From Cycas panzhihuaensis (taxonomy: Eukaryota > Plantae > Cycadophyta): a stretch of DNA of 64,000 bases. Positions 4,146-64,000 of this stretch are shown here, one piece after another. The position numbers and the translations under genes are program-made. Each line of letters opens with the position of its first letter. Position 1 is the first letter of the stretch. Below the pieces are notes generated by a model. The model was not told the DNA's origin. It worked only from the letters and a program-made list of their open reading frames with translations, and ran no database searches. The DNA lies in assembly GCA_023213395.1 (NCBI GenBank), contig CM041465.1, positions 193,819,741 through 193,883,740 on the forward strand. The letters run 5' to 3'.

Positions 4146-4329
4146 ATCTTTAATGTGATTATGAACTTGTAATGTCTTCTCTTGAACAATGAGTAAGTAT
4201 TTCTTAGGATAAGTTTTAATGTCTTCATCTTTGATTTCATCTTTTTGATCTTGTACTCCATGGGAATCACTTGTGTTACATACAATCTTATCATTTACTT
4301 CAATATGTTTATCAATCTTGAAATCTTTA

Positions 4330-7700: not shown

Positions 7701-7898
7701 CCATATAATTCAAACAACAATAAAATATTACATAACATGTGTGTAGTCACATGTGTGAAAGGTGGGAGTGGGGTGATGATCATTAATCCCAACATGAGCT
7801 AATACAACCCAAAGCCTAATGAAAAGGAGCTAAGCTAATTTTCTTAAGGATTGCATGATTTTTCATGACATATTGTTACTATTTTAGTCATAACCTTT

Positions 7899-16935: not shown

Positions 16936-17139
16936 TGTAGAAATACATGTTTTTACATTTTTTAAGCATTTTAAAGGTATTTTTTTACTAAATGAAGACC
17001 ATTAAGCCTCTTTAAGGCATTTTTCTACTAAATAAAGACCATAAACATGAAAAACAAAGTATTTTAAGAGTATTATAAACTTAAAGATCTAAAAACAGAC
17101 CAGAACTCCCCTTTTTAGGAGTTCATGGCCTCATGAACT

Positions 17140-20100: not shown

Positions 20101-20542
20101 AAGTAATTTTTTGCAGGTTTTTATACCTATAAATGGAAAAGTATGTTTCCAGTTAGTCCAACCAACCATCTAATTTTTCGGCATCCAAAGTTCCATCATA
20201 GATGGGCAATTCAAGTTTTTCCTCTACCTTGAATGGATGTATGAATACTGCCAGATTTTCATTTTCTTATTGGTCTTCTACTAGCTGTTCATTCATGTCT
20301 TCTTTCATTGGTTCATCTTCTTCCTTCTTTACGCCTTTGGCTGTTGAAGAAGAGGTTGCAACTTGTTGAGAGACTAGTTGCCCCATAGGTTGGGTTAGTC
20401 TGTTGAGGTTTTACTCCATCTTTACGAACCTTTCCTCCATCTTTTGCTCTGGATCAACCATCTTCCTTTGCTATCTATGTTCTTTCTCAAGAGGTTTGGT
20501 TAAAGGTTCACCCATTAACAAATACTTATATCTAGATTTCAT
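17140..20542 (-). pseudogene. gag-PR-RT-RH-chromodomain polyprotein with integrase missing
   Basis: Gag Zn knuckle (YTHCKRAGHSIEDC), IDGGSQKN-type PR, RT ([22 protein letters not shown]) and RH (ETDA...IADLLSR). These are followed directly by KLC-ILKRKQTKTRRGIIKSFRITQKGQVPSKAKWY...FPHL*. Confidence 0.85.
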
Positions 20543-21448
20543 AAAAACTTTCACAATGAAAGCAAGAGGATTTTTTTCTTTCTTTTTCTTTAAGAATCCC
20601 TAAGTTCCCAAGGGTTTCAAGAAAACTAACTTTGATACCAAAATATTGATCTAAATTTGAATGAGAAAGTTAAGACTTAAACCAATTAAAATAGATCCAT
20701 AATAATTTACAATAATATTATATAATATTGAAGATATTATGAATTTTCTTACAAAACTCTTTTCTTTGTGCTCTATGGAGCATGCAAAGGACTACTACAA
20801 CAATTTGGGAGAGAGAAACTAAGTGCTGGGCACTCCTTGAGCTACTACACGTTCTTTAGAACCTCCGTCTTTGAAGTTTGTAAAGAGTTTTTGGTTGCTG
20901 ATAACCAAAAACCTCTTTTCTTGGTGAAGAAATCTTGCTGCCATCTCTTTCTTAGACTACTGTTGTTGCTATCTTCCTCCCTCAGCTGCAACTTCAATCG
21001 TTTGGGCTCCTTCACTATCCCCACAATAGATTTATTTTGTTACACTTTCGTCTTCTTCTCTCTATGTAGAATTTCAGTGTTGGAGTCATTTTCTCTTTCC
21101 AGAAAGTGATTTTAGATAACTCTCCTTGAATCTTGCTCTACTACTGTGTATGGCTATGACGTCCTCCTTTTCCTCTCAGATTTCTCTATTTTTTCGGCTA
21201 AGATCTTGCCATTTAAAACCCTATAATGCGTTTTACTTTGTACATGTTTTCTATTTTTCTATTTTCTAATGGATTCCAAAACAGTTTAAGAAATCTTGAT
21301 GAAATCCTTTTAATTCAGTGATTTTTCTCTTTAAATGTGTAGAGGATATGTATGAGAAGTTCCTCCTCAAATTTCGTGTGAAACAGACTTAATTTGAGCT
21401 TCCAAAATCATTATCATTTTTATTACTTTTCTATTTTTCCTGCCTCAG

Positions 21449-21660
21449 GTAGCAGTTGCCGTACCTATAGTAGCACCTGAGTAGCAGTGATAGTAGTTGC
21501 CACACCTGCAGTAGCACTTGAGTAGTAGTGACAGCAGTTTCCACACTTGTAGTAGCACCTGAGTAGTAGTGATAGTAGTTGCCGCACCTATAGTAGCACC
21601 TGAGTAGGAGTGACGACACCTGGGTAGCAGTGACAACACCTTGGTAGCACCTAGTTGCAC
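21449..21660. repeat. Same ~41-bp array in the other CRM LTR (~5 units)
   Basis: Same unit with fewer copies than the left LTR. Confidence 0.9.
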
Positions 21661-21828
21661 TTGTAAAAATACATTTTTTTACATTTTTAAAGCCTTTTTA
21701 AGGCATTTTTCTACTAAATGAAGACCATTAAGCCTCTTTACGGTATTTTTCTACTAAATGAAGACCATAAACATGAAAAACAAAGTATTTTAAGAGTATT
21801 ATAAACTTAAAGATCAGAAAATGAATCA

Positions 21829-24037
21829 TGCCACTTACTAAAGGGTGATGTAGTTCATCTTTCATGACCTCATAAACAAAACCCTCAAGGTCTTCATGGA
21901 TGACATGATGGGTCTTTCATGTAAAAGGGCCCAGCATCTTGATAATTTACATGCCATCCTTACTAGGTGTTGTAAATATCATGTTAGCTTGAATTCTCTT
22001 AAATGTATGTTTGTCGAAATAACTGACAAACTTTTGGGTTTCTATGTTTCAAAACAAGGAATCCAAATTGACCCCAATAAAGTCAAGGCCATCCTTGACA
22101 TGACTCCTCCCAAGACTTAATGACAAATCAATTCATTTTTAAGTAGGTTGGATTTCCTCAGGTGTTTCTTAGCAAACTTCACCATAAATGCTAAACCCCT
22201 CATTAACTTATTAAAGAACGGGGCCCTTTTTGTTTGGTCTCCAAAGGCCTAGGAAGCTTTCCAAGAACTCAAAAGATCCTTGGCTTCTGCTATGATCTCG
22301 ATGCCTCCCCTCTTTGATTGACCTTTTATCCTTTACAACTCAACTACTGATGAATCCTTAGGGGTCATTCTTTCCCAAGAGGATGATTCGAGAACTAACA
22401 GGGCTATATACTTTATCAGTCACACCCTAGTAGTTGATGAGCTCAATTATTCCCTTGCTAAGAAGGAATGCCTCACCTTAGTGCATACCACTAAGAAATC
22501 CAGGTATTACTTGCTTGGTAACACCACTCAAGTGATCATCCAATATGATCCCTTGAGATATCTCCTAACTTAATCCAACTTTACTCATAGGACTAGTAGG
22601 TTGGTCATCCTCCTTTAAGAATACGATCTCCAAATTGTTAATAAGAAGTCAAAGAAGGAGATGGTGATCACTAAGCAGCTAGCTAATACCCCCATCCCTA
22701 ATTCTTTAAACACTCTTGTTGATGATTCCTTGTCAGACGAGTCTATCCTTTCCATTCAAGACTCGTCCCACCATTCATTAGCTAATAATGAATTGTATGG
22801 GGATATTGTATGATACCTTACTGAATAGTAGTATTGTCCTGATGCTAGTGACAAGTTAAGGTCATGCGTTAGGACCACTACTAGGTAGTACTTCCTCATA
22901 GAGGAGGTGTTGTATAAAAGATCCTTTGATGGGGTCCTCCTTTACTATGTAAACCTTGATGAGGTAAATTAGATACTCCACGAATGCCATAATGACATTT
23001 GTGAGGGCCACTTTGGGGGCTAATCTATGTCCCATAGGATACTTCGCATGGGTTACTATTGGCCGTCCCTTTTTAAGGATGCCCATGCTTATGTTTTGTG
23101 ATGCCACAGGTGCCAAGAGCATGCCAATGTCATCTATTCTCCTTCTGAGGTCCTACACTCTATTATCTCTTTATGACCATTTTCTCAATGGGGATTATAG
23201 CTCATTAGGGCCACAATCCCTTCTTCTTTGTCATAACACAAGTTTATCTTGACTACAACAAAATATTTCACTAAATGGGCCAAAGCAGTCCCCTTGTCTT
23301 CCACTTATAGTAAGACTATAACTACCTTTATCTACCAACATATTATCTATTAATTTGGGATTCATAATGTCTTGATCGCAGATAATGGAACTCCCTTTTG
23401 TAATAAGTAAATGGATGAGCTTTGTAGGAAGTTTTGGATATCGCACAAGACTTCTTGTTCTTATTACCCTTAGGCTAATGGCCAAATCGAGTCCTTCAAC
23501 AAGACTCTTATAAACATCCTAAAGAAAATCATTGCTCAATTCTAAAAGGATTAGCACCTTCAACTTCCCTCTACTTTATGGGCATACCACACTTCCATTC
23601 GCATGGCCATATAGATAACTCCATTCTCCTTTATATATGGAATTGAGATGGTCCTCCCCTTGGAAGTTGAAATTCCCTCCTTGCATGTCTCTCTTTGAGG
23701 TCTTATTGATGAGGAATCCTATCATTAGGCCCACCTCCTTGACCTTGAGGCTTTAGATGAGAGACATTTGGTTGCATATCAAGCGAATCCCACCTCCAAA
23801 GCTAGGCCATAAAGAATGTATAACAAACATCTTCACTCTTACCCTTTGCATCCTGGGGACTACATCCTTAAGCTAGAATACCTCCACAATCGCCTATCTA
23901 AATTCAGGCCTAAATGGGTTGGTCCTTTCATCATTCTCGAAAGTATCAACAATGGCACCTATAGGATTGCAACTCTAGAGGGTATTGAGTTTGATAAGGC
24001 CATTAATGGTAAAATTTTAAAGAAATTATATGTGTGA
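21829..24037 (+). pseudogene. pol: Tat1 C-terminal RT, native RNase H and integrase
   Basis: ATY*RVM*FIFHDL...FMDD; FILYNSTTDESLGVILSQED; ECHNDICEGHFG...YYWPSLFKDA; ADNGTPF; FRPKWVGPF...AINGKILKKLYV*. Confidence 0.9.
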
Positions 24038-29101: not shown

Positions 29102-29118
29102 ATGATATGCATACATTA

Positions 29119-32100
29119 TGAAGGTTTGAAATAATGGAGATAGAGAGGAGCAGTAAGCAGCATTCAATCTATAATAGAGTAAGAGCATAAACCAAATCAC
29201 ATTTATAAAGCCATGCTTGAGAGCATTACAAATTTCCAAATAGTGGTGGTGTCAAAAAACACTAGAGTTTATCACCCCAAAAAATATATAGTTTGAGGGA
29301 GGAGGGAAACCTCCTCAACCTCTAAAATTCAAACAATATTAAAAAAATACTTAACTCAAGTCATGATTAACCTTACCTGACTTACCTTTACATGTGTCTG
29401 CTTATATATGCAAAAGGGGGGAGAGAGGTGATGATTATTAACCCCAACATTCTCCCCCTTAATAGTCATCATGATTATCTTCATTTGTCTTTGAATTTGT
29501 AGTACATGTATTTGAGGAAAACTTTGAAATAGTAATTAAATAAATGCCCTTTAACTTTGTCTTTATCTTCATTGATGTGATCATTAACTTATATCATTAT
29601 CTTTGCAAAGTAGTTTCCTTCAACATAGTATGGTTCAGGTGATCTCCAAGTAGGTGTGGCTTGCTTCAAATGGAGAAGAGTGGCTTCATCTTTTACTTTA
29701 TCTTCTTGATTCTTTATCTTATGAGAATTGATCAAGTTATAGGTATATACAACATAGTCAAATGCAATAATGCGATCATCCATTTGATTTGAGTTATCAA
29801 TATTAGCCTTTTCAACATAAAATACCTACTCTATCATTTGTCTCACATGTACAACATCATCAACATAGTTAAATTCATTTGACTCTAAGGTTTCTCCCTC
29901 ATAAATTTATTCTAGAGTATCCCAAATAGATTTGGATTTAGTTAACTTGCCAATATTAATGAATATCATCATTGATTATACTAAAAATTAATGATATGAC
30001 TTTATTATCCTTTATTAAGTTTTCTTTATAATTTTGTTCATCCTCTAGGTAACCACATTCAACAAATTTCCAAAGGTTATTTGCACTTAGAAATATTTTT
30101 AACAAGCCTTTCCAAATAAGAAAATTAGTTCCACCAAATGTGGGAATTAAAAAATCATCTAGATAAGTTATAAAACTTTTAGTTTATGAACTCAAATAAA
30201 TAGATGAAGGCCTTTAATAAATGAATAACATAAAGTAGTTAATAGATGCTTTTCAACAAATTCCAACATAAATCCTTTAATTAATGTAGGTAAGTAATGA
30301 GATCAAATGCATATCTTTTTAAGATAAATGCTTTCCTTTTGGATGAAACTAAATCAATCAATGATTTTATGCAAACCTTAAAAGTAAAGAGCTAAAGTGA
30401 GCCAAAGATAATTTGAAATATATATACTATCTTTTAGATGAATGCCTTCATAAAGTAATGAAAAATAACTTGATAATAAAGGAAAATGTATGGTTCAAGA
30501 ATATTGTTTGCAATCTAGCTTTCATGAGGGTTTAAATAAGCTTTGAAAAATAATGAAATGCTTTGAATGCTTATATGCAATAGAATGCACCTTGAAAATG
30601 CTTTGAAAGCTTGAAATAAAACCAATTAAACCTTCTCTATATAGATAAAATCATTAAGAGTAAATATGATCTCTTTTAAATCAAAGAAATATGTATATAT
30701 ACTTGAAAAATACATATGGAATAAATCTTAAGTAAATGGCTTCAAAGAGACAATAATTGGCCTAAAAATAGGCAATAACTGATCTTTAGGAGAGCTTTGA
30801 ATCAAATTTATAAGCTAAAAAATAAAATAAAAGCTTTAGATTAGGGTTATAGTGCACCAGTTTGACATTTTTGATTCAAAGAGGGGCTCCTTCTATTTAG
30901 GAGGCTAAAATGGAGCTTAATAGCCATAAAAACCCAATTGTAAGCTTTTAAAACAAGTAAGAGCTACCAATAATTGATTAGTATCTTAATAATAAATAAA
31001 TATGTTGAGTTAGAGTGAAACTTTTACTTGAAATATTTAATAATATGTCTACTTAGGAACAAATATGAGCCTCAATGTTAACCACTTTAAAGAGTTATAA
31101 GACAATTTTAGATTGAAGTAAAATTTATTCCAATGTGAAGAGTATTAAAAACTCTTTTTGACGAATTCAACTATTCAAAAAACAAGCTCCTAGAGCTCAA
31201 GATATTAATGAATGAGTGAGAGGACCCTTTTAAGAGATTAAAATGGAGCCACAGGGCTTAGATGCTACAAACTTTAGATTAAATCTTTGTATAATGATGT
31301 GGAAAAGGTCATATATAGATTAAAGATCCCTTAGTGTGTCTTAAGCTAAAGAAACTTAGAAAAAATACTTTAATATTACTAAAAAATAATGAACTAAGCT
31401 AAATATATTATCTCAACTTCACTAGCTTTGAAAACCTATAAAATACCTTCAAATTAGATAAAACATTATACCATCATGTAGAGGATTAAACTATATTTCC
31501 AACAAAATAGATGGTTTGGAAAACAGAGCTCGTATACAAGAGTTATTATAGAAAAGGTGAAAGGACCTTTTTACAGTTAACAAAGTAAATGCTGAATGAA
31601 GAGGTTACTTCAAATGATTAAATCTCAGTCAAATGGTTTCAAATATGACAAATGAGTAGTCCACAATATAGCTCTCTAAAAGATGAATGTGATGGACCTA
31701 GTTTCACTAAAAATTAACAAGCTGGAGAGAAGATACAATGGAAAAAGTGACAGTAACCTTTTGAGAAAAAATATAAATAAAATTTTAAAATTAAAAAGTG
31801 ACTAACCCTCTTAATACACAGGCTAATGGTTACATAGAGACCAATATGATCCCTAGTTGACTGAAGAAGGGTTCTAAGACCTCAAATATCATTAAAATAA
31901 ATTAATTCAAAGCTATAAAGTTTAACTTTATAAAACATTAATCAAAACATAAATAAATTTAAAAATAAAAAATGTGTAGAGGCTGTGCACACAGATAAAA
32001 ATTCATGGAGCTCATTTTATTTGTACACAACTCATATTATGACAAAATTTTAGAAAAGGCTAGATATCCATACTATAGAGTCACTTCTAAAATTTCATAA

Positions 32101-33204
32101 AGATCTGATGATCATAGAGAGAGAACAAAGTGATTCATCTCAAGAAGGCTGTAAAAGATATATAGATTGTGTAAAGGTCATACAACTTAGTGAGAGCCCA
32201 TAATACTTCAAAGATTACTTACTCTACTTTGTATTAGGTCTACACCACTATCATAAAAGGAACTAGATAAAAAATGAAGCCAAAATAAGTAAATAAGAAG
32301 TGAGGAAGAGGGGTTTTATTGCCAAAATGAGTAACAAAGCTTCTAAGAGGGAGATTTCTTCGTAGGAGCGATCAAATTTGAAACCGCTAAATTTGGTGTA
32401 GAGTTAACTTGAAGAGACTTGAAATGAATGGTCATTGGATAGGGTTTTGGTCATTGTAGAGAGTGCACTAGCCTGTAGAAGTTTAAGTATATAGAGAAAC
32501 TGTAAAAGAATAGTGAAAAAATAATAAAAACTTATAAAATATCAACCAAAACCTTAATATAATTTCTCCAAAGGACTGCTGGGTTGAATACACATGCTAT
32601 TACTACATAAATCCAAAGAAATACTAATTAAATAGAGTATACACACCAAAATTAGCTAAATATTTAATAAAACTATACAAAACTATTAATAAAACTTTAT
32701 AAAGTGATAAAATATTGAATGTTTTTACTTGCCATGAGTAGCTTTGATAGATTTCCTTTTCAAAAAATAATAGATCTTTGCTTGGTATTAAATGAAGCCA
32801 ACTTAAGAAGCTTTAAATGTAGTCCAGGCTCCAAAATGCTAAATGAAATTAAGATCTTGGTCCAATACCAAATGAAGGTTTGAAATCATAGAGATAGAGC
32901 AAAGCAGTAAGCAATATTCAATCTATTATAGAGTAAGAGCATGAACCAAATCACATTCATCAAGCCATGTTTGAGAGCATTACATATTTATAAACAGTGG
33001 TGGTGTAAAAAAATACTAGGGTTTGTCACCCTAGACAATATATAGTTTGAGGGAGAAGGGAAACCTCCTCAACCTCCAAAATTTAAATAATATTAAAAAA
33101 ATACCTAAACTCAAGTTACCATTAACCTTACTTGACTTACCTTCACATGTGTACGCTTACATATGTAAAAGGTGGGAGAAGGGTGATGAGCATTAACCTT
33201 AATA
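29119..33204 (-). mobile_element. Non-autonomous gag-only Copia element (TR-GAG-like) #2
   Basis: LTRs at 29119-29449 and 32873-33204. Perfect TSD catta/catta. PPT ttctccccctt at 29450-29460. PBS-like tccaatacca at 32861-32870. Gag remnant only. Confidence 0.9.
29790..30170 (-). pseudogene. gag: gag N-terminal half with the same non-canonical tail as element #1
   Basis: IPTFGGTNFLIWKGLLKIFLSANNLWKFVE...KSKSIWDTLE*IYEGETLESNEFNYVDD. Confidence 0.85.
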
Positions 33205-40499: not shown

Positions 40500-43400
40500 G
40501 AAGAACTAGATGACCAATTTACTTTGATTGAAGGGATCATGGTTGATAGTGTAACGTAAGGTAAGGTACCTATACCAAATGAAAAGACTACCATTAATCA
40601 TGAAAAGGTAGAGTACAAAGGAAAAAAGTGATTTTGCCTTATGACTAATTAATATATCCATTAGTGGAGCTGTAGCAGAAAATGTCAAAAGTCCTAAAAT
40701 ACTTAAGGAAGTATCGAATGCCATCACATCTATCTTAGAGGTAAAAAAATGATGGAAAGTTTATGGTTTCAAAGAGTTAACTCTATAGCCTTATAATAAT
40801 AGGTTTAATGATTAAAAATCTATAAATGGTGAAGGAAATTATTAATTAGATGGGGAATATTAGAGAAAATGCCGACAATAAAGACACCATTATTATACTA
40901 TTAAGGAGATTGCCAAAGAGACTTAAAAAATTTATGATGAGTTCTTTTATATTAGAGAAAGTAAGAAATATCATATTTAATGAGCTAAAGGCATTTTTTT
41001 TGTAACATAAATAGATATTAAAGCATAATATTATTGTAAAATCTTTTGATGCATTCTTAGTGATTTCAAAAGAGAAGAAACCCTTCATTATGAAGAAGAA
41101 GGAACTTAATAACAATAACAATCTACTTAGAAGGGGCAACTAGAATTACTATTATCATAATAAACTAGGCCATTTTAAAGAGGGATTGAAAAAAATGATA
41201 GGATGATCAATAAAATAAGAGAGATTGGTAAAATTAAAAGAAGAAATTATATGTAAGGTACATTTTTGGATAGTCAATCATCTCAATTAACAAGGAAGAA
41301 AAGCTCTTATTGGCAACTTCATAGATGAGTTTGAGGGTATGTGATGCTTATTATATTGATTCAAGGGCTTGTAAGTGTATTACAAGTAGGATTAATTGGT
41401 TCATATACATATGGATAGCAATTAGATAAACAATCAACTTGGGAGATAATAACATGTTGAATGTAGAGGGGATTGAAGGGAGAGTGGGAGTTAGAGGGAA
41501 TAAGACATTATATGAAGGACATCAATGATACCATATTTTTAATATTATGAAGGCAGTGTTAAAGAACACCTGGGGGCCTTATAGCTTGGTATATATAGAT
41601 AGGAGTTGGGTGGGAGCCCATTGTCTATCATCTTTCAGTGTTTAAAAATATCATTTAAAAAATATTAATCATTTGACTATGGTCAGTTAATATTAGCTCC
41701 ACCAACCCAAATGTCGACACACTTATTAATAATCCAAATGAATATTATTTAATATTTCTCCCTCATAATGTTCATTTGAGAAGACTTCAAGCTAATCTCT
41801 AAATTTATGGAACTTAAACTTTTCAAAAACCTTAGTAAAGATATCTGTTACTTATTCTTCTATACTATAATAAGTTAACTCAAACTCACCAGCTTGAACC
41901 AATTCTCTAATGAAATGATGTTAAGTTTAAATATACTTTATTTTGCCATGAAATATTAGATTTCAAGTCATTTGTATGGTGCTTTTGTTATCATACAACA
42001 TTTATGTTGGACCATCTTTTTTTACCTATAAGTCTTGGAGTAATCTTCTTAGCCAAATATTTTCACAAGCTCTTACTACTACTACTTTGTATTCTGCTTT
42101 TGTAATAGACAAGGACACCATGTTTTATTTCTTCAAACTCTAAGATTTTGATGCTAAACCTAAACTAAAGCTATAACCTGATGTAGACTTTCTATGATCA
42201 ATACGACTTGTCTAATTTAAATTTGTATAGCCAACTAGTCTAAAATTTATAAAAGACTTGTAATGTAGTCCATAGCCAACTATGTCTTGTAAGTATCTAA
42301 TGATCCTTTTTGCTACTTACCAATGTGATACTTTGGGATCATGCATGAATCTAGAGACAACACTTACTGCATACATGATATCTAGCTGAGTCAAAGTTAA
42401 GTAGATCAAACTACTAATCAGTTGCTTGTAGAGTGTATGATCAACCAATGCTAATTCTTCATACTTAGATAATTTTGTTTCAACTTCAATTGGTGTAGTA
42501 AGTGCTTTACAATCACTCTTATTGAAGGATAAGACATTATGCAAAGGACATCAATGATAACATATTTTTAATATTATGAAGGTAGTGTTAAAGAACACCT
42601 AGGGGCCTTATGATCTTATATATATATATGAGAGTTGGTGGGTGCACAATGTCTACTATCTTTCAATGTTTAAAAATACCATTTAAAAAAATAGAAATCA
42701 TTTGGCTAGGATTAACTAATGTCAACTCCACCAATCCTAATGTTGACTCACTTATTAATAATCCAAATGAACATTATCTAACAGGGATAGGAGTGGTCCC
42801 ATTCATTATACCTTATAGGTAAGACTATTATATTGAGGATGTGATGTATATATTAGGATTAAAGAATGATTTGATTTTTATCAACTAAATTTAAGATAGT
42901 AAGATGAATATTCTCTTTAAATATAAGAAGGCTATTGATAGTAACTATATGGAGAAAGTAATAGTTGAAGGAGTTAGAGATAGTGATTTTTATATGCTCT
43001 TAGGAAAAAATGTAAACTAAAGAGAATTAATTACTGATGCATTATGTAAAATTCAATTATGGCATCATAGAATAGGTCATTTACACTACTGCTTTCTTTT
43101 TATGATGCATAAACTAAATATGGTACATGGTATTCCAAAACATAAACTAATGAAGATCATTCATAAACCTTGTATTATAGGTAAGCAATATAGGGAGAAG
43201 TTCCAAAATGGTAAAACTTTAAGAGCAACTAAAAATGTTAACCCTTGTACAGTCAAATATTTGTGATTCAATGCTAACTATTTCACTTAAAAATAAAAGA
43301 TATTTCTTGACCTTCATTAATGACTTTTTAAGGAAAGTTTAGGTCTATGATGTAGAGGAGAAATCCTAGACCTTTGGTATTTTCAAGCAGTTCAAGGTGA

Positions 43401-45057: not shown

Positions 45058-46730
45058 TGTGGGAGAAGCACTATCGTCGAAACCTAACAAACGAGCCTAG
45101 GGTAAATGTGGCAAGCTGGAAGGGAGAACAATACTCCACACCCTACCCAAGGTATCTATGCACCTCTTAGATGTAGAAAGCAGGGTAAGCAACAACCTCA
45201 AGAAGTGCTTATACTACTACCTAGAGTAACCCAGATGAGGATAGACACATGGAGGAGGTTTCACCCCCTAATTTCTAAGGCATGTATAATGACCTAAAGA
45301 AAAGAAGGTAAAATGGATGAATCACACACCTATGAGCCTCTTCTACTTGGTGAATTCAAAGGGAGTTTTTGATAATAGGATGATACATTCTACGAGTTTG
45401 GGAACCTGCAATATTACAATCTTTCCTTTATCTTGAATCTTGTAAGATAAGGAGAGAGTAAGGATGGACCTATTTGCAATATGTGTGGTGGGGATTCTAG
45501 TTGATAACCTAATTCTTTTACTTTTTTTTATTTTCTTTTATTGTATTTGTTGTATATATTTTTTCTTTTTTGTTTTGGAGGTTTATCCTAAATGTAAGTA
45601 ATAATATAAAATGAAAGCCAAAGGAAAGCAATGCTTAAAGAAACAAAGTAAGAAAAAAAGAAATATTTACTTTTCTTCTTTTCTTTTTTTTTTGGGAAAA
45701 AGGAGGGAATTGAGTGATATGAGAAAATAAGAGTAGGAAAAGAGGATGATTAATCAAGGGATGCCTCTCTCTCTCTTTCCTTTCTTTCTTTTTGTTGTTT
45801 CCTACTCCTTCAACCCCAATACCCTTCTTTTCCTCTCCTTTGTCTCTCCTATCTTTTCTTAATAAAATAAAATAAAATATGAAGTGGAACAAAATCAAAT
45901 ATTATGATAAAGTCAAGAGAAGAAGGAATGTATACCCATGATAATGATGTTCGATGGTGATGAATCTCATATCCTCACTTTACATGTGATTGATTTGATG
46001 ATGAGTATGGGAGGTTCACTCACCTCCCCCTGAGAGAAATCTTATAGTGTTTCTGCTTGCCAGTTTCCCTTCTCATAAAAAAGAAGAAAGAAACGAATCT
46101 TGAAAAGAGACAAGAAACCCAAAGGAAACCTCAAATAAGAATCACTACCACTTACCTCTTCTATGAACAGTTGCTACCGATAATGATGGTAAGATCCTTC
46201 ATGAAAATCTTATCGAACCAACAACTTTTCTTCCTCTGTGTATATAGATTAGCTTTCTCTCCCAAAGACATACAACATGCACAAAAATATATCACTCAAC
46301 AATGAGACAATTAGCAATGTCATATAAACTATGGAATGAGAAAATAACATCTACGAACTATCCATTATAAAAATAAGAATGGTAAAAGGAGGTATAGTTG
46401 AGAGCCTCAGAATGGCACCATCTCTCCTATATCATTAGTTTCCCAAGTCCTACTTAGGAAATCTCACCATATGCTTGCAAACCCACTTATCTAGAAGAGT
46501 GAAAATCATCAACATTCAACTTAAGATAGCTTAATATCAAGCAAAGAAAATGGAAGTCTCAAGTAAAAGTCTAAGAAGTATCAGGTGGAGATATGATAAG
46601 AAATTAAAGGAACATTAGCCAACATGAATCATCAAAAATCCTCATAACATGGTTTTGAATATGATGGAAACAAGGAGGAGAATAACAAATCCTAAAGCTT
46701 AGGAGTGGTTTACCATATCTTTTTTTGGAG
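45058..46730 (-). repeat. Tat2 3' LTR, distal part
   Basis: Ends ...cttctcccaca at 45058, abutting the old Copia RT. Homologous to the Tat1 LTR around 45640-45760. Confidence 0.7.
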
Positions 46731-47245
46731 TGTTAGATTATATAATGTAAACTTTATGTTTTATTATGTTTCTTAAGGTTATTATTTAGTCACATGTCTT
46801 AAAAATTATTTAAGTGATTGTAATGTTATAAACTTATGTTTAATATTAACTGATTTGTGGATGGTCATTGAAATGCGGAACTGCATTCCAACAAACCTCT
46901 GTCCTCTTTATTAATCTCCTAAATTTATGGAATTAGTTCTAGGAATCTAGGAGGTATGTCCATATGCCTAAAACAAGGCTATTTTAGGGGGTTGGTTATT
47001 GTGTATTTTGGTTTCAATTATTTATTAATACAAACTAGGTTAGGAGGTGGTTTTTCTTCCCCAGAAGGGGTTTTCCACCTGTCAACCCTGTGTACATGTG
47101 CATTGTCTCTTTCTTGTGTCTCTCTTCTGTTCCTGTGATATTTTGACTGTCTACATGTGCCTATTCTATCGTGGTATCAGAGCATAATACTATAGATATA
47201 GATACTGCTAGAGAACACACTCGGGATTTGTATTAAACATTGGTC

Positions 47246-47461
47246 TTACATGACAATATAAATGTTTGGATTCTCATCACAGAACACTGATGTCTTTAGG
47301 TAGAACCATGGGAATAAGTGACCTTGGAAGGGTTAGCATAACTAAGCTGATAAGGAAATGGCCATAACTCTGCTCTTCTTCCTATTTTTCTCACAAGTCT
47401 TTAGCACCACCTTCTGATCAACATATCCCATAACCATGATCTTGTGCAAGTTAATGTCCAT
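47246..47461 (-). pseudogene. Captured fragment of a heavy-metal-associated isoprenylated plant protein (HIPP) gene: end of HMA domain and CaaX terminus
   Basis: [37 protein letters not shown].../TSVFCDENPNIYIVM* compared with the HIPP consensus ..KVTVTGYVD.KKVLK.VR.TG..AELWP.PY...FSDENPNACSIM*. Confidence 0.85.
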
Positions 47462-47539
47462 CTTGTTCACAGAAAGGATAGGTCTAATCCTTTCTCCTAA
47501 GGCTTGATGAAACACAGTTTTAGTCTGAACACATACATC
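47456..47539 (-). pseudogene. eEF2: Captured fragment of the translation elongation factor 2 GTPase domain (G4 NKMD region)
   Basis: [28 protein letters not shown] compared with plant eEF2 [28 protein letters not shown]. Confidence 0.9.
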
Positions 47540-48639
47540 TATAGAGCTATCTATGAAAGTGATCGTAAAACAGGAGCTAGAACCCTAGTCTAGTACAAGT
47601 AAACCAAAGTTGCAAGGAACAAGAAGAAGAAGAGGACGAGTATTTCTTTGTGGATCTGGGAGAATTGACGCAGTCCTTGTCTGCCATTAATACCAGAGAC
47701 TAGCAAGCCACCATGAAAAACTTGTAGGAGGAGGCACTTGGTCACATTCTCTCACCAAATAAGGATGATTCAGAGCATTATCTGTGTTGATTTTGTGTCA
47801 AGGATGGGTAGCTAAAGAATCATTCTAAGGTCCATATTTGGAATGATTAGAGACCCCACGAATGCTCCTAAAATATAAACCTGAGAACAAAGCTACAAAA
47901 AAAGAAAAGAGGCTTTTAAACAAAGCACTAGCCTTAAGTTGTTGAGGTTAGAGTGAACCTGAAGTCCGGGCCACATAGTATAAAGGATTTCATCCACATA
48001 AGATGATGGCTCAATAGTATCTTTTTCCCTGTTCGGAAGGGAGAAATCAACGTTAGCACCAGACAGTGTTAAACGATCAGTGCACACACTAGATCCTCTT
48101 TGTGGACTATACTTTTTGCCATAACCAGGCTGCCATATACGCTTTTTCTGCTCTACATTTCTTAGCCTCCATAGAGATTCATGATCATAACGGGAGGACA
48201 TTTATTTGATTTACCCCTTCGAATTCAAGCACAGGGAGGATCAGAAGCAAATAAGAGATGAAATCCTTAGAGGTGTTACTCTGATTCCTCCCACAAACTG
48301 ATGAGGGGTTTTGTTCCATAGGGAGAGGGCTCAACAATATATGTGATGGCTTCCTGGTCTAACAAGGCTACACTTAACGAACAAACAAAGGAGAGACGGA
48401 GGGAACCAGCAGCTACCCGCATCTAAATCGCCATCGCTCCAATGCCATCGTCGACATGCAGAAACCCTCACTGCCGCCATGGGAAGAACATGAAAATGAG
48501 GTAGGTTTTCCTCATTTTTACCCCCCGGACCCCAATTTACATTAAAATTTAATTTTGTGTTTTAATTAAAACAAACCTGTCAGGTCCATTTTAGGTTTAG
48601 TTTAGTTTTTTTTTTTTTTTTTAACCTTAATTTAAATTA

Positions 48640-49640
48640 AACTTTAAACCCCCCCTCCATTATACTTTGTATTTTGATTTAAATCAAAGCACCCCCCCCC
48701 CCCCCCGCCCCTTAATAATATTTTTTGATTTAATGAACCACAACCCCCCCTTTAAACACATTTTTATTAAAACAAATTCCTCCCCCCTTTTATAATACCT
48801 TTATTAAAATAAATTTATATACACCCCCTCTTTTATCACTTTGTTATTTAATCAAATCAAACCCCCCCTTAATTATATTTTTATTAAATCAAATAACCTC
48901 CCTTACATTTTATTCTTAACTTTTTTTAATGTTAAAATTAACCCTTCTCCTCTATAATACTTTAATGATAAAACATTAGCCCCCCCCCCCCCCCCCCCTT
49001 TTTTCTTTTAGTATTCTTTGATGAAACATAAGCTCAACCCCCTCTCTTTTTTCTTATTATGTTTGTTTTTTTATTAAATTTTGTATTGTATACTTGATTT
49101 AAATCAAATACAATTCCTTTTTTTTCTATTATGCCTTGATTCTAAGTAAATCTATACCCTTCTATTACTCTTTAATGATTAAAATTAACTCTTTGATTAC
49201 TACATTTTAATGCTAAAAATTATTTCAAATTAATATAGTTAATTTTAAGAAAATTAAAATTAACCTTTTACTTATTATATTTAATCAAATCCATTCCTTT
49301 TATTATATATATATTTTACATTTATTTCTCTCCAACACTTCATTATTAATTTATGAATTAACTTTTTTTTCACACTTAATCTATAGAGTTGAATTATGTC
49401 ATTTAAGCCTTAAAATTACACATCTATTTCTCAAAATAAAAAGGGAAATTAAATACCTTAGTTACAAAGTTGTTTTTAAGTAAAACACTTACTTTATTAA
49501 GGGGAATTGTTTATTTTTTAAGGGGGATTTTTTAATTTTGAAGGGAGATAGTTTCTTTTTATCAAGGGGATTATTTATTAAACAAGGACTTTTTTATTCA
49601 AAGTAAAGGGGGACTATTTCTCTAAGAGGGACTATTTTTC
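48640..49640. repeat. Degenerate ~40-bp array of C-tracts followed by an array of G-tracts in the Copia leader
   Basis: About 10 aacccccc(t)...tttattaaatcaaa units at 48640-49060, fading to ~49300. Then aagggg(g)a units at 49500-49635. Confidence 0.75.
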
Positions 49641-49871
49641 TAAAAGAATTATTTTTCAAAAAAGACTGCTTAAGGAATTATTTTTTAAGAAGTTATTTGT
49701 TTATTTCTATTTAAAAGCACATGATTCTTTTTATATTAAAATCAATTAATGTATACTAAGATGTCTTTATGAATTAGATCTGTTAACAAGATTAGTACTT
49801 TCACTAGGTAATTATTTTTTCAGTCACCTTCATAACTTTTCAATCTACAAATAAACCTCAACACTCTTAAT

Positions 49872-52800
49872 ATGGCATTAATGCCAGGGACAGTCACTTA
49901 CGTTCCAATTCTAGTATTAACTAGCTCAAACTATGATGACTGGAGGAATCACATATCCCATCAGCTCAAACAGTAAAAAGTATGGTGATATATGACAGGT
50001 GAATTCAAAAAACCAAAAGCAGATGCTACTAAGAGTCTTATGGTATATCTGATGAACTTAGATGCCACATTAGGTACCATATTAAACTCACTCTCACTAG
50101 AAATCGGTTGGCAGTTTTCTGAAAAAGATGACTTAGCCAATGTTTGGAAAACCTTAGAAGAAAAATATGACAAGGTTGATACACATCAAGTAGCTATCCT
50201 AGAAGAGCAATTGTATAATCTAACTTTTGATGACTTTTCAAATGTTGAGGATTTTTTAACTAAAATCCAATCAATTAATAAAAATCTAGATAATTACATT
50301 AAATCAAAAACCAAAAAAGGTGATATAGAAAAAATAACTACGCATGTTAAAGATGATGACATGCTCGTATGTCTTGCAGTTAACAAATTACTGAAACACT
50401 TTAATCTTTACCAAGCTGTCAGACAACAAGCTGGCAATCCACCTATCACATTCAATAAGCTGACAAGCTAGCTGATTGAACATCAGACAATGTTAATTAA
50501 AACAGGCGTAATAAAAGATCATTCACAGGCTTTATTTTCTAAAACTAAGCCACAATTTAAAAACAAACAACAGAATAATAATTTTCATAATAATAAAAAA
50601 TTCTAGAAACCTCATCGAGGTTCACCATCTAATTCTCATAATAATGTTAAATATTCTGGTCCAACTAAAAACCAGAATACTTCTAATCAATTCGTTTCTA
50701 ATAGAAACAATGCATCTTTTTCTCAGAACACTAGTTGTGCCTACTATCATAAAAGAGGCCATATTATTGATGTCTGTAGAAGTAGAATAGCTCTAGAAGC
50801 ATGGAAAGTTTTCAAGGGATTGCAAAATAAACCATAATCCCATTCTCAATCCCATTTTCAATCACATTCATAATCACGACCACAAAACCGTCAATTTCAT
50901 AATCGTTCTTTAGCAGTAATAACTTCTACGTTTGTTGCTCCTTCAAACCAACCACCACAATGGATCCTTGACTCTGGTGCATCCCATTATATAATTAGAC
51001 ACCAGAAAAATTTAACCACTTACCAATCCAAAATGAACTCTAAAGAAGAGATTTCTTTCAGTAGTGGTAATCAACTCAAAGTCAAAGGATCTAGTGATGT
51101 TACTCTAAATGATGTTTCAATCAAGGACGTTTTTTATGTACCTAGCTTGTTACCAAACCTCCTCTCAGTTTATGAAATCTATCAGAAAGACCTTGTCATC
51201 GAATTCTGGAAAAATAAAATTGTCATTAAGGATCCATTACACAAATTCAAATGTATTGCCTTAGGACTTGTTGATCATAACATAGGTCTCTATAGTCTGA
51301 CCAGTTTTCAAAATAATAAATCAAAATCTTTTAGTGCTTTTATTGCCAAATCTGACTCAATTAGTAAGCTTTGGCATGCAAGATTTGGCCATACTAGTTA
51401 TGGTAAACTGTAATATTTAATTAAGCATGAAATAGTCCATGGTTTGCCACCCTTAAACACTGTTTATGGTGTTTGTGAAGCTTGTGTAATACGCAAACAA
51501 CACATGGATCCATTTCCATACAAAAATCAATATCGAGCAACTGCTCCACTCGAACTTGTCCACTCTGATATATGTGGACCCTTTCATGTACCATCATACT
51601 TAGGATCTCATTATTTTGTCACATTCATAGATGATTATTCAAGAAAATATTGGGTTTATATGCTCAAAATATGCAGTCAAATATTTGACATTTTCGTTGA
51701 ATATAAAACCTTAGTAGAAAATCAATCTAATTCAAGAATCAAAATATTTTGATCTGATAATGTTAAGGAATATTTAAGTAAAAAATTTATCTCTTTCTGC
51801 AAATCACATGGAATTAAATTCTAACATTCAGTTACATACATACCTGAATAAAACGATGTTGTTGAACGCAAAAACTGTACTCTTATTGAAATGACTCATT
51901 GCATGTTACATGCAAAGAATCTCGATTTAAAACTATGGGTAGAAGTAATTAACTACTCTAATTATTTATTAAATCATTTACCCAATAAATGTCTACAAAA
52001 CATCACTCCAGAACAAAAATGGTCTGGAAGAAAACCATCTATCCAACATTTACGAATCTTTGGCAGTATCGCGTGGGGACATATCCCTCACAAAAAATGT
52101 AAAAAGTTAAATAAAAAAAGTCAAAAATACATCTTCATTAGCTATAGCGAAGAGAGCAAAGCTTATAGACTTTTAGATCCAGTCACACATAATATTTCTA
52201 TTTTGCGTGATATAGTATTTGATGAAGAAGGATCTACTTCAACATCTACTTATGTAGAACTTCCTGTTGAAGATTTATTAACCAACACTCATTTGGTTGA
52301 TCCTTCTGATAAACAAGTTGATTCAGAAATTATATACTCTTTATCAACTCAAGTCTAAAATTGGACTCTATCAGAACCCACTGAAATAGATCCTTCTCTT
52401 CAAGCTAGTACATCAAATCAACCTATAACCTCAGATATAGTTACTCACAAGCAACCTGTTTGGGCAACCAAAACGCTTGTTGATGCTGGATCTAATGTAG
52501 GCAATCCTATTGATACTAGGCACACACGTGCACAAAAACTGCATGAAAATTTTACCTTAATGGCAAAAATAATGGAAAATAATGATCCTAAAACTTTTAA
52601 ACAAGCCAGTAACAATCCTGTATGGCAAGATGCTATGCAGACTGAATTTGCTGCCTTAATTAAAAGTTCAACTTGGGATCTAGTTCCTCTCCCACCTGGG
52701 AAAATTTCGTCGACTATAAATGGGCTTATAGAACTAAATATAATTCAACATGCGCAGTGGAAAATAATAAATCTTGTCTTGTTGCCAAAGGATTTTCTCA

Positions 52801-54126
52801 AATAGATGGCATTGACTAGAATGAAACCTTTGCCCCTATCACAAAGATGAATACAATTAAGACAATTATTGCTCTCACAACCAAGTTTGGTTGGGAAATC
52901 CACCAAATGGATGTTAAGAGTGCTTTCTTGAATGGTGATCTCAAAGAAGAGATCTATATGTCACAACCACCTAGATTCATTGAAAATCCTAATTTAGTCT
53001 GCAAACTTAAAAAACCTATTTACGGTTTAAAACAAGCTCCTCGAGCTTGGTATACCAAAGTCAATGATTACTTAATCCGCATTAGATACACTAGATGTAT
53101 TAGTGATCCAAATCTTTATTTTAAACGTGAAAATGAAAATCTTACCATTATAATCCTCTATGTTGATGACATTATTATCACTAGATCATCAACCCATAAT
53201 ATTCATCATCTCAAATCAACTTTAATGAACAAATTTGAAATGACCGATTTAGGTCTATTACATTACTTTCTAGGTTTACAAGTTTATCAAAATCAATCAA
53301 ATATAACACTATCTCAACCTAAGTATATTCTTGATTTAATTTAGTGGTTTAACATGGAAAATGCTAAACCTGTATCCAATCCTTTACAATTGGGAGTTAA
53401 ATTGTCTACTGATTGTCTAACTCCGTTATGTGATCCAACTCTATATAGACAACTCATTGGTAGTCTAATCTATCTTACTCACACCCGCCCTGACATTTCT
53501 TATGATGTTGCTTTATGCTCCTGATATATGCAACAACCACATAAATCTCACTGGAAAGCAACTAAATGAATCTTACGCTATCTAAAAAATACTGTATTTT
53601 ATGGTTTAACTTATAACTTTTTAATAAACCACTAACATTAATTGGATATACTGATTTCGATTAGGCAGGTGATTTAAATGATTGTAAATCTACTTTAGGT
53701 TATGTATTTATTATTTATTCTTCACCTATTACTTGGTCTAGCAAAAAAATGTAGGCACTAGCATTATTAACAACTGAAGCCTAATATCGAGCATTAGTCG
53801 AAGCTAGTAAAGAAGCACTTTGGCTAAAATCACTACTAAATGAAACTGGTCTAACTCTAAACTCTTCAATTGAAATTAAAATTGATACTCAAGGTACAAT
53901 TGTTATTGCTACTAATCCTATTTCTTATTCTAGAACTAAACATATTAAATTACATCAACATTTTATTCACAATTTAGTTACTGATAATCTTATTTGTTTG
54001 TCTTATTGTCCAACAGATTTACAGATTGTTGACATTCTTACAAAGTCATTAACTGAACCAAAGTTTTTAAATCTCAGAGATTTATTGCAGATAAAAGAAG
54101 TCTCCATCAAAGGGGGATCACCGTGA
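49872..54126 (+). pseudogene. Copia gag-pol polyprotein (gag, PR, INT, RT, RH), disrupted mostly by C>T/G>A stops
   Basis: WILDSGASHY, LWHARFGH, CEACV...ELVHSDICGP...FIDDYSR, HQMDVKSAFLNG, YGLKQAPRAW, LYVDD, VDILTK. Confidence 0.97.
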
Positions 54127-54615
54127 TGAAGCTCTTCTTTTCTCTCCAATTCAAAAGTTTACATTAAAAGGGGATGTTAGATTATATAATGTAAACTTTA
54201 TGTTTTATTATGTTTCTTAAGGTTATTATTTAGTCACATGTCTTAAAAATTATTTAAGTGATTGTAATGTTATAAACTTATATTTAATATTAATTGATTT
54301 GTGGATGGTCATTGAAATACAGAACCACATTCCAACGAACCTCTGTCCTATTTATTAATCTTCTAGATTCATGGAATTAGTTCCAGGAATCTAGGAGGTC
54401 TGTCCATATGCCTGAAACAAGGCTATTTTAGGGGGTTGGTTATTATGTATTTTGGTTTCAGTTATTTATTAATACAAACTAGCTTAGGAGGTGGTTTTTC
54501 TTCCCTAGAAGGGGTTTTCCACCTGTTAAACGTGTGTATATGTGCATTGTCTCTTTCTTGTGTTTCTCTTCTGTTCCTGTGATATTTTGACTGTGTACAT
54601 GTGCCTATTCTATCA

Positions 54616-55597
54616 TGGAGAAAAGTAGCCATTAGCTACACAATAATCATCTCAAGGTCTCTTTCAGTTGTTATGGAAGTACACCTTTGATCCTTACTAT
54701 GCTTTGCTAGATAAATCCTCAAATGCTAGTAAATCTAACAAAATTTTGATAGCATCTCCCCAGCAATTCCTTCTTACCATTGATCTCCTCCTTCCCTCTA
54801 AAAATTTTAGGGGTTTTATAGAAAAAACAAGGGTGAGAGGCAAGTGGTTTCCTACCCATAATGTAGGGGAAACCACTCTGGAATACCATGGACTAATTGA
54901 GAGGTTTAAGGAGATTGGGTACCTTAAACAATAATAAAACTAGGAAAAGGGGAAGATTTAGGGGTTGTTTCAGCCTCAAAGATAGATATGAGTTTCCAGG
55001 ACTGACAAGGTCTATTAAAGGGGTGATCTGGGTGTGTTAATAGTAGACTAACATTAATTAAAACCAAATCTAGGCACTGTGATAATTATGCCATGAATTA
55101 TTTAGCAGTACTATAAAGATCTTCATGGTACTGTAAGGATCTTAGTGATACGGCAACATACATAAAAGTCAAAGTGTCATGACATTAGAGAAGAAAATTT
55201 TATTGTTTTACCTAATCACAGGCTGGTAAGTCTCAGAAATAAAGGTCTGTGGATACTCATTTATCATTGATAAATGGAAACAAGGTAAAACAAGGCAAAC
55301 CATGCAAAAATAATCAATTGAAATAAAGGAATAGGCTACTTGCAAGTGAGGAGGTATCCATTTTCTGACTTAGTAATGCTAATGGAGAGACATAAGGGCC
55401 ATAGACAATGTCTTACTTATCATCAAATGAAAATAGAGGACATGACCTAATTAAGCAAGCAAAAACATCTAGCATCCATCCACCACATGAACCAAATAGA
55501 TGTAAATGAAGAAAGATAGTAAGATGGGTAGAAATCATACCTGTACTTACCATGCTTAATTGATCATCCAAATCCCATTCCTAAAAGCTAGGAAACA
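54616..55597 (-). repeat. Tat2 3' LTR, proximal part
   Basis: Begins TG next to the PPT. The first ~55 nt match the start of the Tat1 LTR at 7899. Confidence 0.75.
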
Positions 55598-61378: not shown

Positions 61379-64000
61379 TTAGCTATAAAATATTTTAAGA
61401 AATTGACTGTTGACAACCTTCTCAAACTTGAGGCCTTCTAAAGTAGTGATATGATATACACCATTATTCAACATATTGATGACAACAAAGGGGCCCACTT
61501 ATTTGGGGCTAAATTTCAAGAGGCAATTGTATAGATATTCGAGTTTAAGGACCTAGCCCAATAAAACTAAAGGACATAGTCGAAGGCAATTATCATGGGT
61601 CTTTTGGGTTTTAGCCTTAGATGCAAGGTTACGTTGATATGTGATGAGGTGTTTTTTATCAAGCACTTCTAGATTAAGAAGATGGGCCTAACGTCACCAC
61701 TCTTTGTCAACAAAATATTTAAGAGACATCCTTAAAGAAGGGATTTCAATTTCTAAGGGAAGGACTACCTCTATCCCATAGACCAAAGAAAAGGGAGTCA
61801 TGTCCATGGTAGTTCTAATTGATGTATGATAAGCCTAGAGACCAGGGTGAAGCTATAAATGATAATCCTTTTGGGATTGACTGACAGTTTTCTTAAGGAT
61901 ATTGGTCAATGTCTTATTAAATACCTTAACCTAACTATTGGCTTCAAGATAATATGGAAATGAAGCTTTATGAGAGATTTTAAACTTCTCATGAAGCTCG
62001 TCCATTTATTTATTATAAAAAAGAATCCTATTATCTGTAATGAGAATATTGGGGACTCTAAAATAAAAAATAATATTTTGAAAGATAAATGTGATGATCA
62101 TCTTGCTTGTCATTGAAGATAAAAAGACCACCTCAGCCCATTTAGTAAAATATTATATTACCATCAGAATAAACTTATATTAGGCCAAAGACAAAGGAGT
62201 TATAGCCCCTATAAGGTCTAACCCCCATTGAGAAAATGGCCATGGTGACATAATAGTATGCAACACCTCAGATGGTTGTGAATCATGTTGATATGTTCTT
62301 GGCATTTAAAGCAATGTATGTCATAGTTATGGGTGTCTTTAAATAATGTTGGCTAGTAATAACCCTAGTGTAATATTCTCTGGGCTATAGATTAACCCCC
62401 AAAGTGTCCCTCACAGATGTTATCATGACACTTATGGAGAATCTGATTAGCATCACTTGAAGTAATACATCATAGAAGGGCACCATCAAAGGAATGCATA
62501 TACAATGTGTCTTTGATGATAAAGTATTGATGGGATAAGGCCTTGATGTGGAATTTAACCTTGTCAAAAGTTTCAATAGGGTATTTCTATTGTGCCAAAT
62601 AGTTGATGATACCATACCATTTATCATTGGCTAGGGGATGGGGATCAACCTCTTGAAGGGCTAAAACTGACTTATCTAAGAGAGAGTCATTGATAGGGGT
62701 CTTAGTTGGGTTGCAAATTAAATAAAGTATATCTTAACTACTTAACCACTATCTTACCTTTCTTAGACTTATGGTTGACAACCTTAAGATCATATTCTTG
62801 TAGGAGAAGGGTCCATTTTCCCATTCTTCTAGTTAAGTCGATCACGTCATAAGATAACGTAACAAGTCTGACTGGACAACAACATACATTATATTTCCAA
62901 GGAGATAATAGCAGAACTTGTTAATGATAAACACTAAGACTAAGCATTCTTTTTTAGCTAGAGGGTAGTTTAGCATCATCTTCTTGGGTCAGCATAACAC
63001 CTATATATTCATCAATTATAGAGGTATAAAGGATAAATGGGTGATCAAACAGGGGAGGTGCTAATACAAGAGCCATAATAAGAGCCTATTTGAGTAGGTG
63101 GAAGGCCACTTAGTCCTTAGGTGTTCACATGAAAGGGGTTCCTTTCTTGAGTAAATTGGTTAGTAATTTAGTGTTGATGGTAAAATCTACTAGAAATCAT
63201 CATAAAAATCTAAGGCATCCTAGGAAGGACTTAATTTACTACTGGGTTTAGGTGGGGCCATCTCAACCATAGCCTTAAGTTGGTTGGGGTAAACTTTAAT
63301 CCCTTTATGAGATATGAGGAACCCTAATAATTTACTAGTAGTGATAGCAAAAATACACTTAAGAGGATTTAAACTAACATGATATTTATGATAATGTGTG
63401 AATATCTTCCTCAAATCTACTGGGTGATTGCTCTGTTTGTGAGATAAGGCCATGAGATCATCCATAAAGACCTCTAGAATATTATTGATGAGGCTATAGA
63501 AGATAAACTGCATAGATCTTTGGTATGTCACTCCAATATTTTTCAAGCCAAAGGTTATAGATTTGTAGGTAAATGCCCCCCATAGGATGGTGAAAGTGGT
63601 CTTGTGGTAATCCTCTAGAGAAATTTGAATCTGGTTGTACCTAGAGAAACTATCCATCAAGGACATTACCTCGAATCTAGTAGTGCAATCAATAATTCGA
63701 TTGATAAAAGGTAACAAAAATTTATCATTGGGACAAGCATTGTTGATATCTCAAAAATCAACATAGATTCTTATCGTTCCATTTTTCTTCATGACTGAGA
63801 CGATGCTAGATACACACTTTGGGTGATCTATGGAGGTGATGAGACCAGTTGCATGCAACTTCTCGACTTCCATTTTCATAGAAACTAAGAGCTTAGGGTG
63901 TAATAGATGCTGCTTTTGCCTAATTGGGTGGGCACCGAGTATGGTGGTAAGGTTATGCATGATGATGGAGGGATCAATGCCCTTCATGTCTGAATAATCC
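61379..64000 (-). pseudogene. pol: Tat2 pol (RT, degenerate native RH, integrase)
   Basis: MKGIDPSII...EVEKLHATG...YNQIQI...FMDD; PFILYTSIIDEYIG; YY*PTLFKD; VGPFVV...NSQFLKIFYS*. Confidence 0.93.

Follow-up and report, generated by a model that had tools for sequence, protein, structure and literature searches.

Host transcript pieces, two of them antisense, behind the primer-binding site of a decayed Copia retrotransposon in Cycas panzhihuaensis

Introduction

The closest described systems are LTR elements that carry parts of host genes. The maize element Bs1 holds partial pieces of several host genes, as does the element described here (Elrouby and Bureau; PMC13317346, PMC5131818), and gymnosperm genomes commonly contain Copia and Gypsy elements that have captured exon pieces, at least two in about 14% of the carriers (PMC13477047). 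The animal LTR retrocopies of Tan et al. (2016, PMC5131818) are alike in their partial mRNAs, few-base microsimilarity, several donors and secondary amplification; in the model given there, they arise by a double switch during cDNA synthesis from element RNA. Transduced genes usually lie in the sense of gag-pol (PMC7264820), and sense cargo is what the standard model of LTR gene capture yields. The plus strands of yeast Ty elements are reported to end once 12 nt of the initiator tRNA have been copied, and these dead-end products pile up in the particles (PMC5371799).

Here we describe an element in a window of 64,000 nt, the whole stretch of DNA analysed (assembly GCA_023213395.1, contig CM041465.1, positions 193,819,741 to 193,883,740); all coordinates below are window positions. 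Directly behind its primer-binding site (PBS) lies a cargo that, judged by its matches, is a mosaic of pieces of at least five host transcripts. The named pieces, from HIPP and eEF2, are on the minus strand, against the sense cargo of the Bs1/Tan model. We put at about 0.5 the probability that the antisense HIPP piece was added by plus-strand strong-stop DNA primed on HIPP mRNA, with the pieces of at least five transcripts copied by the element's own RT.

Materials and methods

Part of the leader is contained in 17 of the 24 public runs listed (8 studies, 12 organism labels; none with more than 24% of the leader words). Donors were sought in run X24, probably an RNA run of a related organism (RNA by guess) with unstranded contigs. 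It behaves as a transcriptome, since its depth is zero over 46742-46812 in the LTR, against 3,600-26,600 in the DNA runs. Ten of its 139,402 records fall on 47100-48585, and the donor fits come from the seven records listed. None of these seven bridges PBS-HIPP or HIPP-eEF2, which says nothing on expression, nor does the lack of a run labelled as RNA among the listed holders of leader sequence. Siblings were sought in DNA runs X1, X2 and X3, which represent three organisms and three studies and of which about 47% each was read. Decay was counted over 42 listed differences from X24 contigs (40 of 45, plus two more), with differences at the ends of pieces lying outside the list.

Results

The element

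The carrier is a decayed Copia retrotransposon (Table 1). Its paired LTRs and the perfect TSD, TGGAG on both flanks, are as a first-pass annotation of this DNA had described them; the LTRs differ at 25 sites (19 transitions and 6 transversions; K2P 0.059) and are about 94% alike. LTR ends of TG..CA type with a 5-bp TSD are those of Copia, the 5' LTR ending in CG through one substitution, and a PBS and a polypurine tract (PPT) are both present, as in Ty1/copia. We take the PBS, TGGTATCAGAGC, to be of the initiator-Met tRNA type. The coding remnants follow the order gag-PR-IN-RT-RH with an RVT_2-type RT, again as in Copia (RNase H by eye only), and Pfam matches comprise Retrotran_gag_2, Pol_BBD, gag_pre-integrs, rve and RVT_2. 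Among the 120 RT matches listed, the relatives bearing names are mostly from pine (PITA_), at 52-58% identity, which points to a gymnosperm as the likely host. The element had been called otherwise complete, which holds in that every part is present, but the gag-pol frames are interrupted by many stops and frameshifts. There were no Rfam matches over 46700-50000.

Outside the cargo, the window consists of repeats. Other LTR pairs lie at 3608-7795, 15813-21821 and 29118-33198, apparently as minus-strand elements, the first and last of them related to each other (about 75%). A 255-nt direct repeat lies within 41500-42781, and 22922-23692 and 61722-64000 are Gypsy-like remnants, also related to each other. 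In the LTR, 47026-47096 holds a 45-nt motif that recurs in a great many unrelated contigs (with summed depth as high as 184,000 and loose ends on both sides) and is likely a conserved LTR core of many families. The leader has C-rich degenerate repeats at 48531-49650, where GC skew falls to -0.68, and then G-tract repeats at 49499-49641; long-range pairing in leader RNA is possible.

Table 1 Coordinates of the Copia element and of the pieces in its cargo
Feature	Positions	Strand	Evidence
5' target-site duplication, TGGAG	46726-46730	+	
Copia LTR retrotransposon, decayed	46731-54615	+	paired LTRs, TSD, PBS, PPT, Pfam domains
5' LTR, 441 nt, TGTT..ATCG	46731-47171	+	
PBS TGGTATCAGAGC, 12 nt	47172-47183	+	
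HIPP 3'UTR piece, 62 nt, cut inside the UTR, without poly(A)	47184-47245	-	X24 record 1
HIPP coding piece, end of HMA domain to stop codon	47246-47458	-	X24 record 1, PDB match
eEF2/HIPP junction, GACA common to both donors	47455-47458	-	X24 record 1 ends at 47458, record 2 at 47455
eEF2 G-domain piece, 83 nt, 28 codons	47455-47537	-	phmmer, Pfam; X24 records 2 (82%) and 3 (86%)
Piece C	47544-47621	possibly sense (+)	1785-nt X24 contig, 6 differences in 78
Piece D	47625-47698	may be sense	1130-nt X24 contig, 8 differences in 74
Two short matches, about 35-40 nt each, to more X24 contigs	47921-48022		depth bins only
Piece F	48020-48325		514-nt X24 contig, 25 differences in 306
AT-rich leader with degenerate C-tract repeats	48531-49950	+	
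gag, protease, integrase, RT and RNase H remnants, Copia order	49989-54123	+	Pfam; RNase H by eye only
Polypurine tract	54166-54174	+	
3' LTR, TGTT..ATCA	54175-54615	+	
3' target-site duplication, TGGAG	54616-54620	+	

The HIPP and eEF2 pieces

Donor contigs of X24 cover 798 of the 1347 bases of 47184-48530. The cargo begins right after the PBS, as had been claimed, and reaches at least 48325, far past 47551, where the first-pass annotation had ended it. As in Bs1 and the retrocopies of Tan et al., partial host mRNA pieces lie between two LTRs. None of the five identified pieces matches other DNA of the window.

Both peptides that had been read on the minus strand are given by its translation, and the claims of 28 eEF2 codons and of about 60 nt of possible 3'UTR are borne out by the pieces in Table 1. 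The eEF2 peptide matches yeast eEF2 in the PDB (phmmer, E 9e-8) and Pfam GTP_EFTU (E 3e-6), the only family found in a six-frame Pfam scan of the leader (one of seven queries). Three X24 contigs lie on this piece, one of which goes on as ALVVVDCVEG / RCFLELQVDG, eEF2 on both sides (by eye). They diverge from the window by 14-18%; the actual donor paralogue may therefore be absent from this set, in which case the HIPP/eEF2 junction is read from relatives. For the HIPP peptide, with an X at its frameshift, the best PDB match is the modest one to rice Os01g0507700 (151 aa, E 0.0012); the piece has no Pfam HMA match and no candidate in a word-based protein search, and its C-terminal 28 residues, searched alone, had no match. 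X24 record 1, a 920-nt contig, fits 47198-47458 at 93.6% in two parts, 47297-47458 and 47198-47301 (7 differences in the latter), with 317 more nt past the fit; beyond the junction it continues as HMA-type sequence, ..KLKGVDSVDI (by eye). X24 thus supplies both of the donors that the first-pass annotation had named. The eEF2 and HIPP pieces each presumably derive from within a single exon.

Two changes mark the HIPP piece: a 76-nt deletion between 5-nt direct repeats (47297-47301) and an extra base at 47395 that the X24 donor lacks. Since the two cancel, eEF2, the HMA part of HIPP and the HIPP end share one register. The in-frame fusion that had been reported therefore stands as to register, but there is no intact ORF, given the extra base, the deletion and two stops. 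The CaaX end fared likewise: its cysteine is kept in the X24 donor but gone from the window copy. The stops in the shared register fall where the donor contigs differ from the window, and at 47343 most sibling depth differs too. Because the two changes cancel and the stops lie at such sites, an open antisense eEF2-HIPP frame in the founder of the family is possible; by a rough estimate, chance alone would produce one in a few percent of comparable cases, and it was noticed post hoc.

Further pieces of the cargo

Pieces C, D and F match their X24 contigs at 89-92% identity, and X24 cover is absent at 47699-47920 and from most of 48326-48585. The plus strand of piece C has a purine fraction of 0.63 (p 0.03, one of 12 stretches tested). 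The plus frame of piece D reads EEEDEYFFVDLGEL, which to us resembles the tail of a WRKY group IIe protein. Because C is purine-rich and D WRKY-like on the plus strand, these two pieces may be sense-oriented. Searches did not bear out a WRKY identity of piece D: the PDB offered a match at E 2.9 only, the atlas was blank, and no paper had both WRKY and DLGEL. A word-based protein search with piece D gave no match among 18 candidates at E up to 10.

Piece F has no frame open across its whole length. A minus frame of 102 codons matches an insect repeat protein and an 84-aa Logan protein (E 7e-12) that belongs to no Pfam family and was probably called as a gene by chance on related DNA; against the PDB, piece F gave E 0.14 or worse. 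Within it, at 48041-48320, DNA contigs skip 71-181 nt, and five of the six listed joints of this kind lie here. Siblings keep losing parts of the cargo.

Decay of this copy

Among 34 transitions between donor and window, 31 run from donor C/G to window T/A and three in reverse (p 4e-7). In the spans scored, mutated sites make up 11 of 30 CG, 11 of 36 CHG and 5 of 86 CHH positions (Fisher p 1e-5). This CG/CHG-enriched pattern is the signature of a methylated, unselected copy, and we infer methylcytosine deamination as the cause of decay. Cargo and donors diverge by 6-11% (eEF2 14-18%), of the same order as the LTRs (5.7%), and the values by piece (6.4, 14, 7.7, 10.8 and 8.2%) show no trend towards greater divergence farther from the PBS. 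The copy is a fossil, with a frameshift, stops and the CaaX cysteine lost, and its cargo is most likely a passenger without function.

Siblings and build-up of the cargo

All three DNA runs have many diverged contigs on the cargo. Two of these, X2 record 10 and X3 record 25, align ungapped through the site of the HIPP deletion at about 90% identity, and in X1, X2 and X3 alike the whole DNA depth at 47395 has the extra base. Because siblings in three organisms have both the deletion and the extra base, both changes predate amplification. The first-pass annotation had proposed looking for the cargo in family copies and had set its presence in this copy only against its own reading; these siblings carry it. 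The shared changes also indicate secondary amplification, as in Bs1 and the Tan-type retrocopies. The HIPP/eEF2 joint was bridged by none of the 24 DNA pieces listed (of more than 11,000), metagenome scans found neither it nor the PBS/HIPP joint (0 each), and X3 record 25 reaches past the PBS junction towards the LTR by only 24 nt.

X24 record 4 (382 nt, depth 138) fits 47459-47538, that is, the eEF2 piece with almost the same ends, next to a neighbour other than HIPP. By eye, its loose end can be aligned to piece C with one gap, 26 of the 30 letters agreeing (chance below 1e-8 ungapped). If X24 is RNA, a relative of the chimera would be transcribed. The existence of an eEF2-C module without HIPP favours stepwise accretion over serial switching in one round, and suggests that the cargo was built up stepwise. 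We had also considered record 4 as an intron-retaining eEF2 transcript, an idea dropped because its flank aligns to piece C.

Among DNA contigs, X1 record 2 (378 nt) has the deleted HIPP form over 47267-47395 (129 nt), and its other 249 nt are not listed as fitting; it may come from a sibling whose HIPP piece has a neighbour other than eEF2. Summed DNA depth, which is not a copy number, is 687, 1820 and 3190 over 47452-47522 in eEF2 versus 190, 74 and 20 in the adjacent HIPP bin, and the eEF2 piece may be amplified in other repeats.

Junctions

The HIPP and eEF2 donor contigs overlap on four bases, so the microhomology that had been predicted between them is real; it had been placed at 47456-47461, but the bases shared exactly are 47455-47458, with six of seven alike over 47455-47461. 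Microhomology occurs at all three breakpoints that have a visible donor side (PBS/HIPP 4 nt, HIPP deletion 5 nt, HIPP/eEF2 4 nt), a count that covers these three, with the loose ends of pieces C, D and F outside it. Such microsimilarity at switch points is also a feature of Bs1 and the Tan-type retrocopies.

At the PBS, the HIPP donor 3'UTR is in register at 47180-47183, the last four of the 12 PBS bases. By eye, the loose end of X24 record 1 agrees in register with the window at 10 of the 12 positions 47180-47191, and past them at 1 of 12; the tool alignment of this contig stops at 47198, and similarity beyond that was judged by eye. The chance of a 4/4 match is about 0.5-1%, and that of 10/12 about 1e-4 to 5e-4 (binomial, before allowing for window choice). 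At 47191 all covering DNA contigs (5, 15 and 3) differ from both window and donor, so that either the in-register match is one position weaker or the alignment is shifted.

Discussion

A proposed plus-strand primer for antisense capture

A first-strand switch onto mRNA gives sense cargo, so antisense cargo needs either an antisense template or second-strand copying. The first-pass annotation had proposed serial template switching at microhomology: real donors are indeed joined at microhomology, but an ordinary switch would give sense cargo, and the eEF2-C module without HIPP points to stepwise growth. Priming by plus-strand strong-stop DNA, which we favour, would explain orientation, position, microhomology and the 3'UTR-first order together, although it rests on one event. 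A plus strand ending in its 12-nt primer copy would anneal to the 3'UTR of HIPP mRNA through the last four PBS bases, and its extension on the mRNA would put antisense cargo directly behind the PBS, 3'UTR first. The strand would run from the 3'UTR into the coding region, skip 76 nt between the 5-nt repeats and pass onto eEF2 at the four shared bases. It could return to element sequence at the eEF2 piece either by copying eEF2 mRNA in the same round or, more likely, on an element that already carried eEF2 and piece C. The chimera was then amplified, siblings in three organisms keeping the deletion and the extra base, and decayed in a pattern that we ascribe to methylcytosine deamination. The HIPP junction falls at PBS base 12. 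The 12-nt stop is known for yeast Ty and would have to hold for this plant lineage too; short PBS matches are common in plant elements. A later deletion pulling older cargo to the PBS would leave identical microhomology at the PBS end.

Template copying from RNA of some kind, whether through plus-strand priming or through first-strand switching on antisense RNA, is probable. The latter route would combine switching as in Bs1 and the animal retrocopies, on RNA that was already antisense (natural antisense, an RDR-made strand or a transcript of an element with inverted pieces), with a later deletion at the four shared bases that moved HIPP to the PBS. Switching of this sort is documented with short microsimilarity and several donors (PMC5131818), X24 record 4 has the eEF2-C module in another context, and the 76-nt gap is an internal microhomology deletion of the kind required. 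We nevertheless consider this route unlikely: it calls for antisense RNA of two unrelated genes, of which the data examined show no sign, and for a deletion ending exactly at PBS base 12. Repair of a break in the leader of an integrated copy, filled by templated insertions of genomic DNA or cDNA in either orientation and amplified afterwards, seems to us quite unlikely. Microhomology joints and mixed orientation are typical of repair filler; pieces C and D, if really sense, may fit such an origin equally well, and intron loss is not among the evidence for an RNA template. Against this, all five identified pieces match transcripts, though repeats make up most of the genome, no other stretch of the window resembles any of them, and the start of the cargo at the PBS end would be a coincidence.

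A Pack-MULE, Pack-CACTA, Helitron or LINE retrocopy nested in the leader of this copy is very improbable. Such elements do carry multi-gene chimeras in either orientation (PMC13317346), and the first-pass annotation had named a Pack-MULE or Helitron insertion with its own termini as what would overturn its reading; the cargo largely refutes that. It has no TSD around it and no terminal inverted repeat, the best score equalling the shuffled mean (107 of 200 shuffles as high), and the longest flanking duplication is the 5-nt ATATA. The marks of a LINE processed pseudogene, poly(A) at the mRNA 3' end and a TSD, are absent around the cargo: there is no poly(A), no run of A or T of 8 or more before 48606, and HIPP is cut 317 nt before the contig end. 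Siblings in three organisms share the cargo, which a nested insertion in this copy would not explain. Helitron ends were screened as motifs only, and these are too common to decide.

Beyond the single event, strong-stop plus-strand DNA could be a recurring capture primer that stacks antisense host pieces behind the PBS over cycles, and the founder of this family may have had an open antisense eEF2-HIPP-CaaX frame; we regard this extension as doubtful. If true, one could trace the birth of an antisense additional ORF, a type described as being of unknown origin, and young copies transcribed from their LTRs would already supply antisense RNA against eEF2 and HIPP.

Effect on host genes and wider meaning

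Transposon siRNAs arise from both strands, whatever the orientation of the cargo. The first-pass annotation had suggested that element transcripts or siRNAs could target eEF2 and HIPP mRNAs. On the sequences compared, the HIPP cargo would be close enough for cross-matching small RNAs (no listed difference at 47403-47427), and eEF2 as seen would not; the sequence and contig data examined hold no evidence that the cargo regulates either gene. In a conifer, donor genes have higher methylation and, when syntenic, no substantial loss of expression (PMC13477047).

The antisense junction at the PBS end leads to a specific prediction that can be tallied: captures in antisense should be concentrated at PBS ends, share 3-5 bases there and read from the 3'UTR. 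If true genome-wide, plus-strand priming would be a second route of RNA-based gene duplication, would give dead-end plus-strand DNA a role, and would provide an origin for antisense ORFs and for natural antisense RNA against host genes. If the prediction fails, this locus is one more decayed multi-gene capture.

Comparison with known systems

Copies of Bs1 share their switch points as this family shares its deletion and extra base, but Bs1 is a transcribed and translated chimeric gene, whereas here the named pieces are antisense, lie in the 5' leader of an element that retains gag-pol, and have decayed (PMC13317346, PMC5131818). In the animal LTR retrocopies, cargo replaces internal ORF sequence by a double first-strand switch (PMC5131818); here it abuts the PBS in reversed orientation, and all gag-pol remnants are present. 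The antisense additional ORFs of Grande, RIRE2 and Retand resemble our cargo as family-wide antisense sequence inside a plant LTR element, but as described they are intact, lack a host homologue and are placed between pol and the 3' LTR, whereas our cargo is upstream and broken, with identifiable donors (PMC7264820). The gymnosperm capture survey does not use the word antisense in its main text and, in its available part, gives no PBS-linked mechanism of the kind proposed here (PMC13477047). The plus-strand strong-stop DNA of yeast Ty1 and Ty3 ends after 12 nt of the initiator tRNA, which equals the length of our PBS and the site of the HIPP junction; it is described as a dead end, and priming on host mRNA is what we propose in addition for this element (PMC5371799).

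Older retroviral work on strand-transfer errors may cover plus-strand capture. In the literature searched, which left most subscription papers outside, we found no antisense, PBS-abutting capture by plus-strand priming in an element with an intact domain set. Bs1 and the gymnosperm elements already document the capture of several genes by plant LTR elements; the antisense form abutting the PBS appears, within that literature, to be new.
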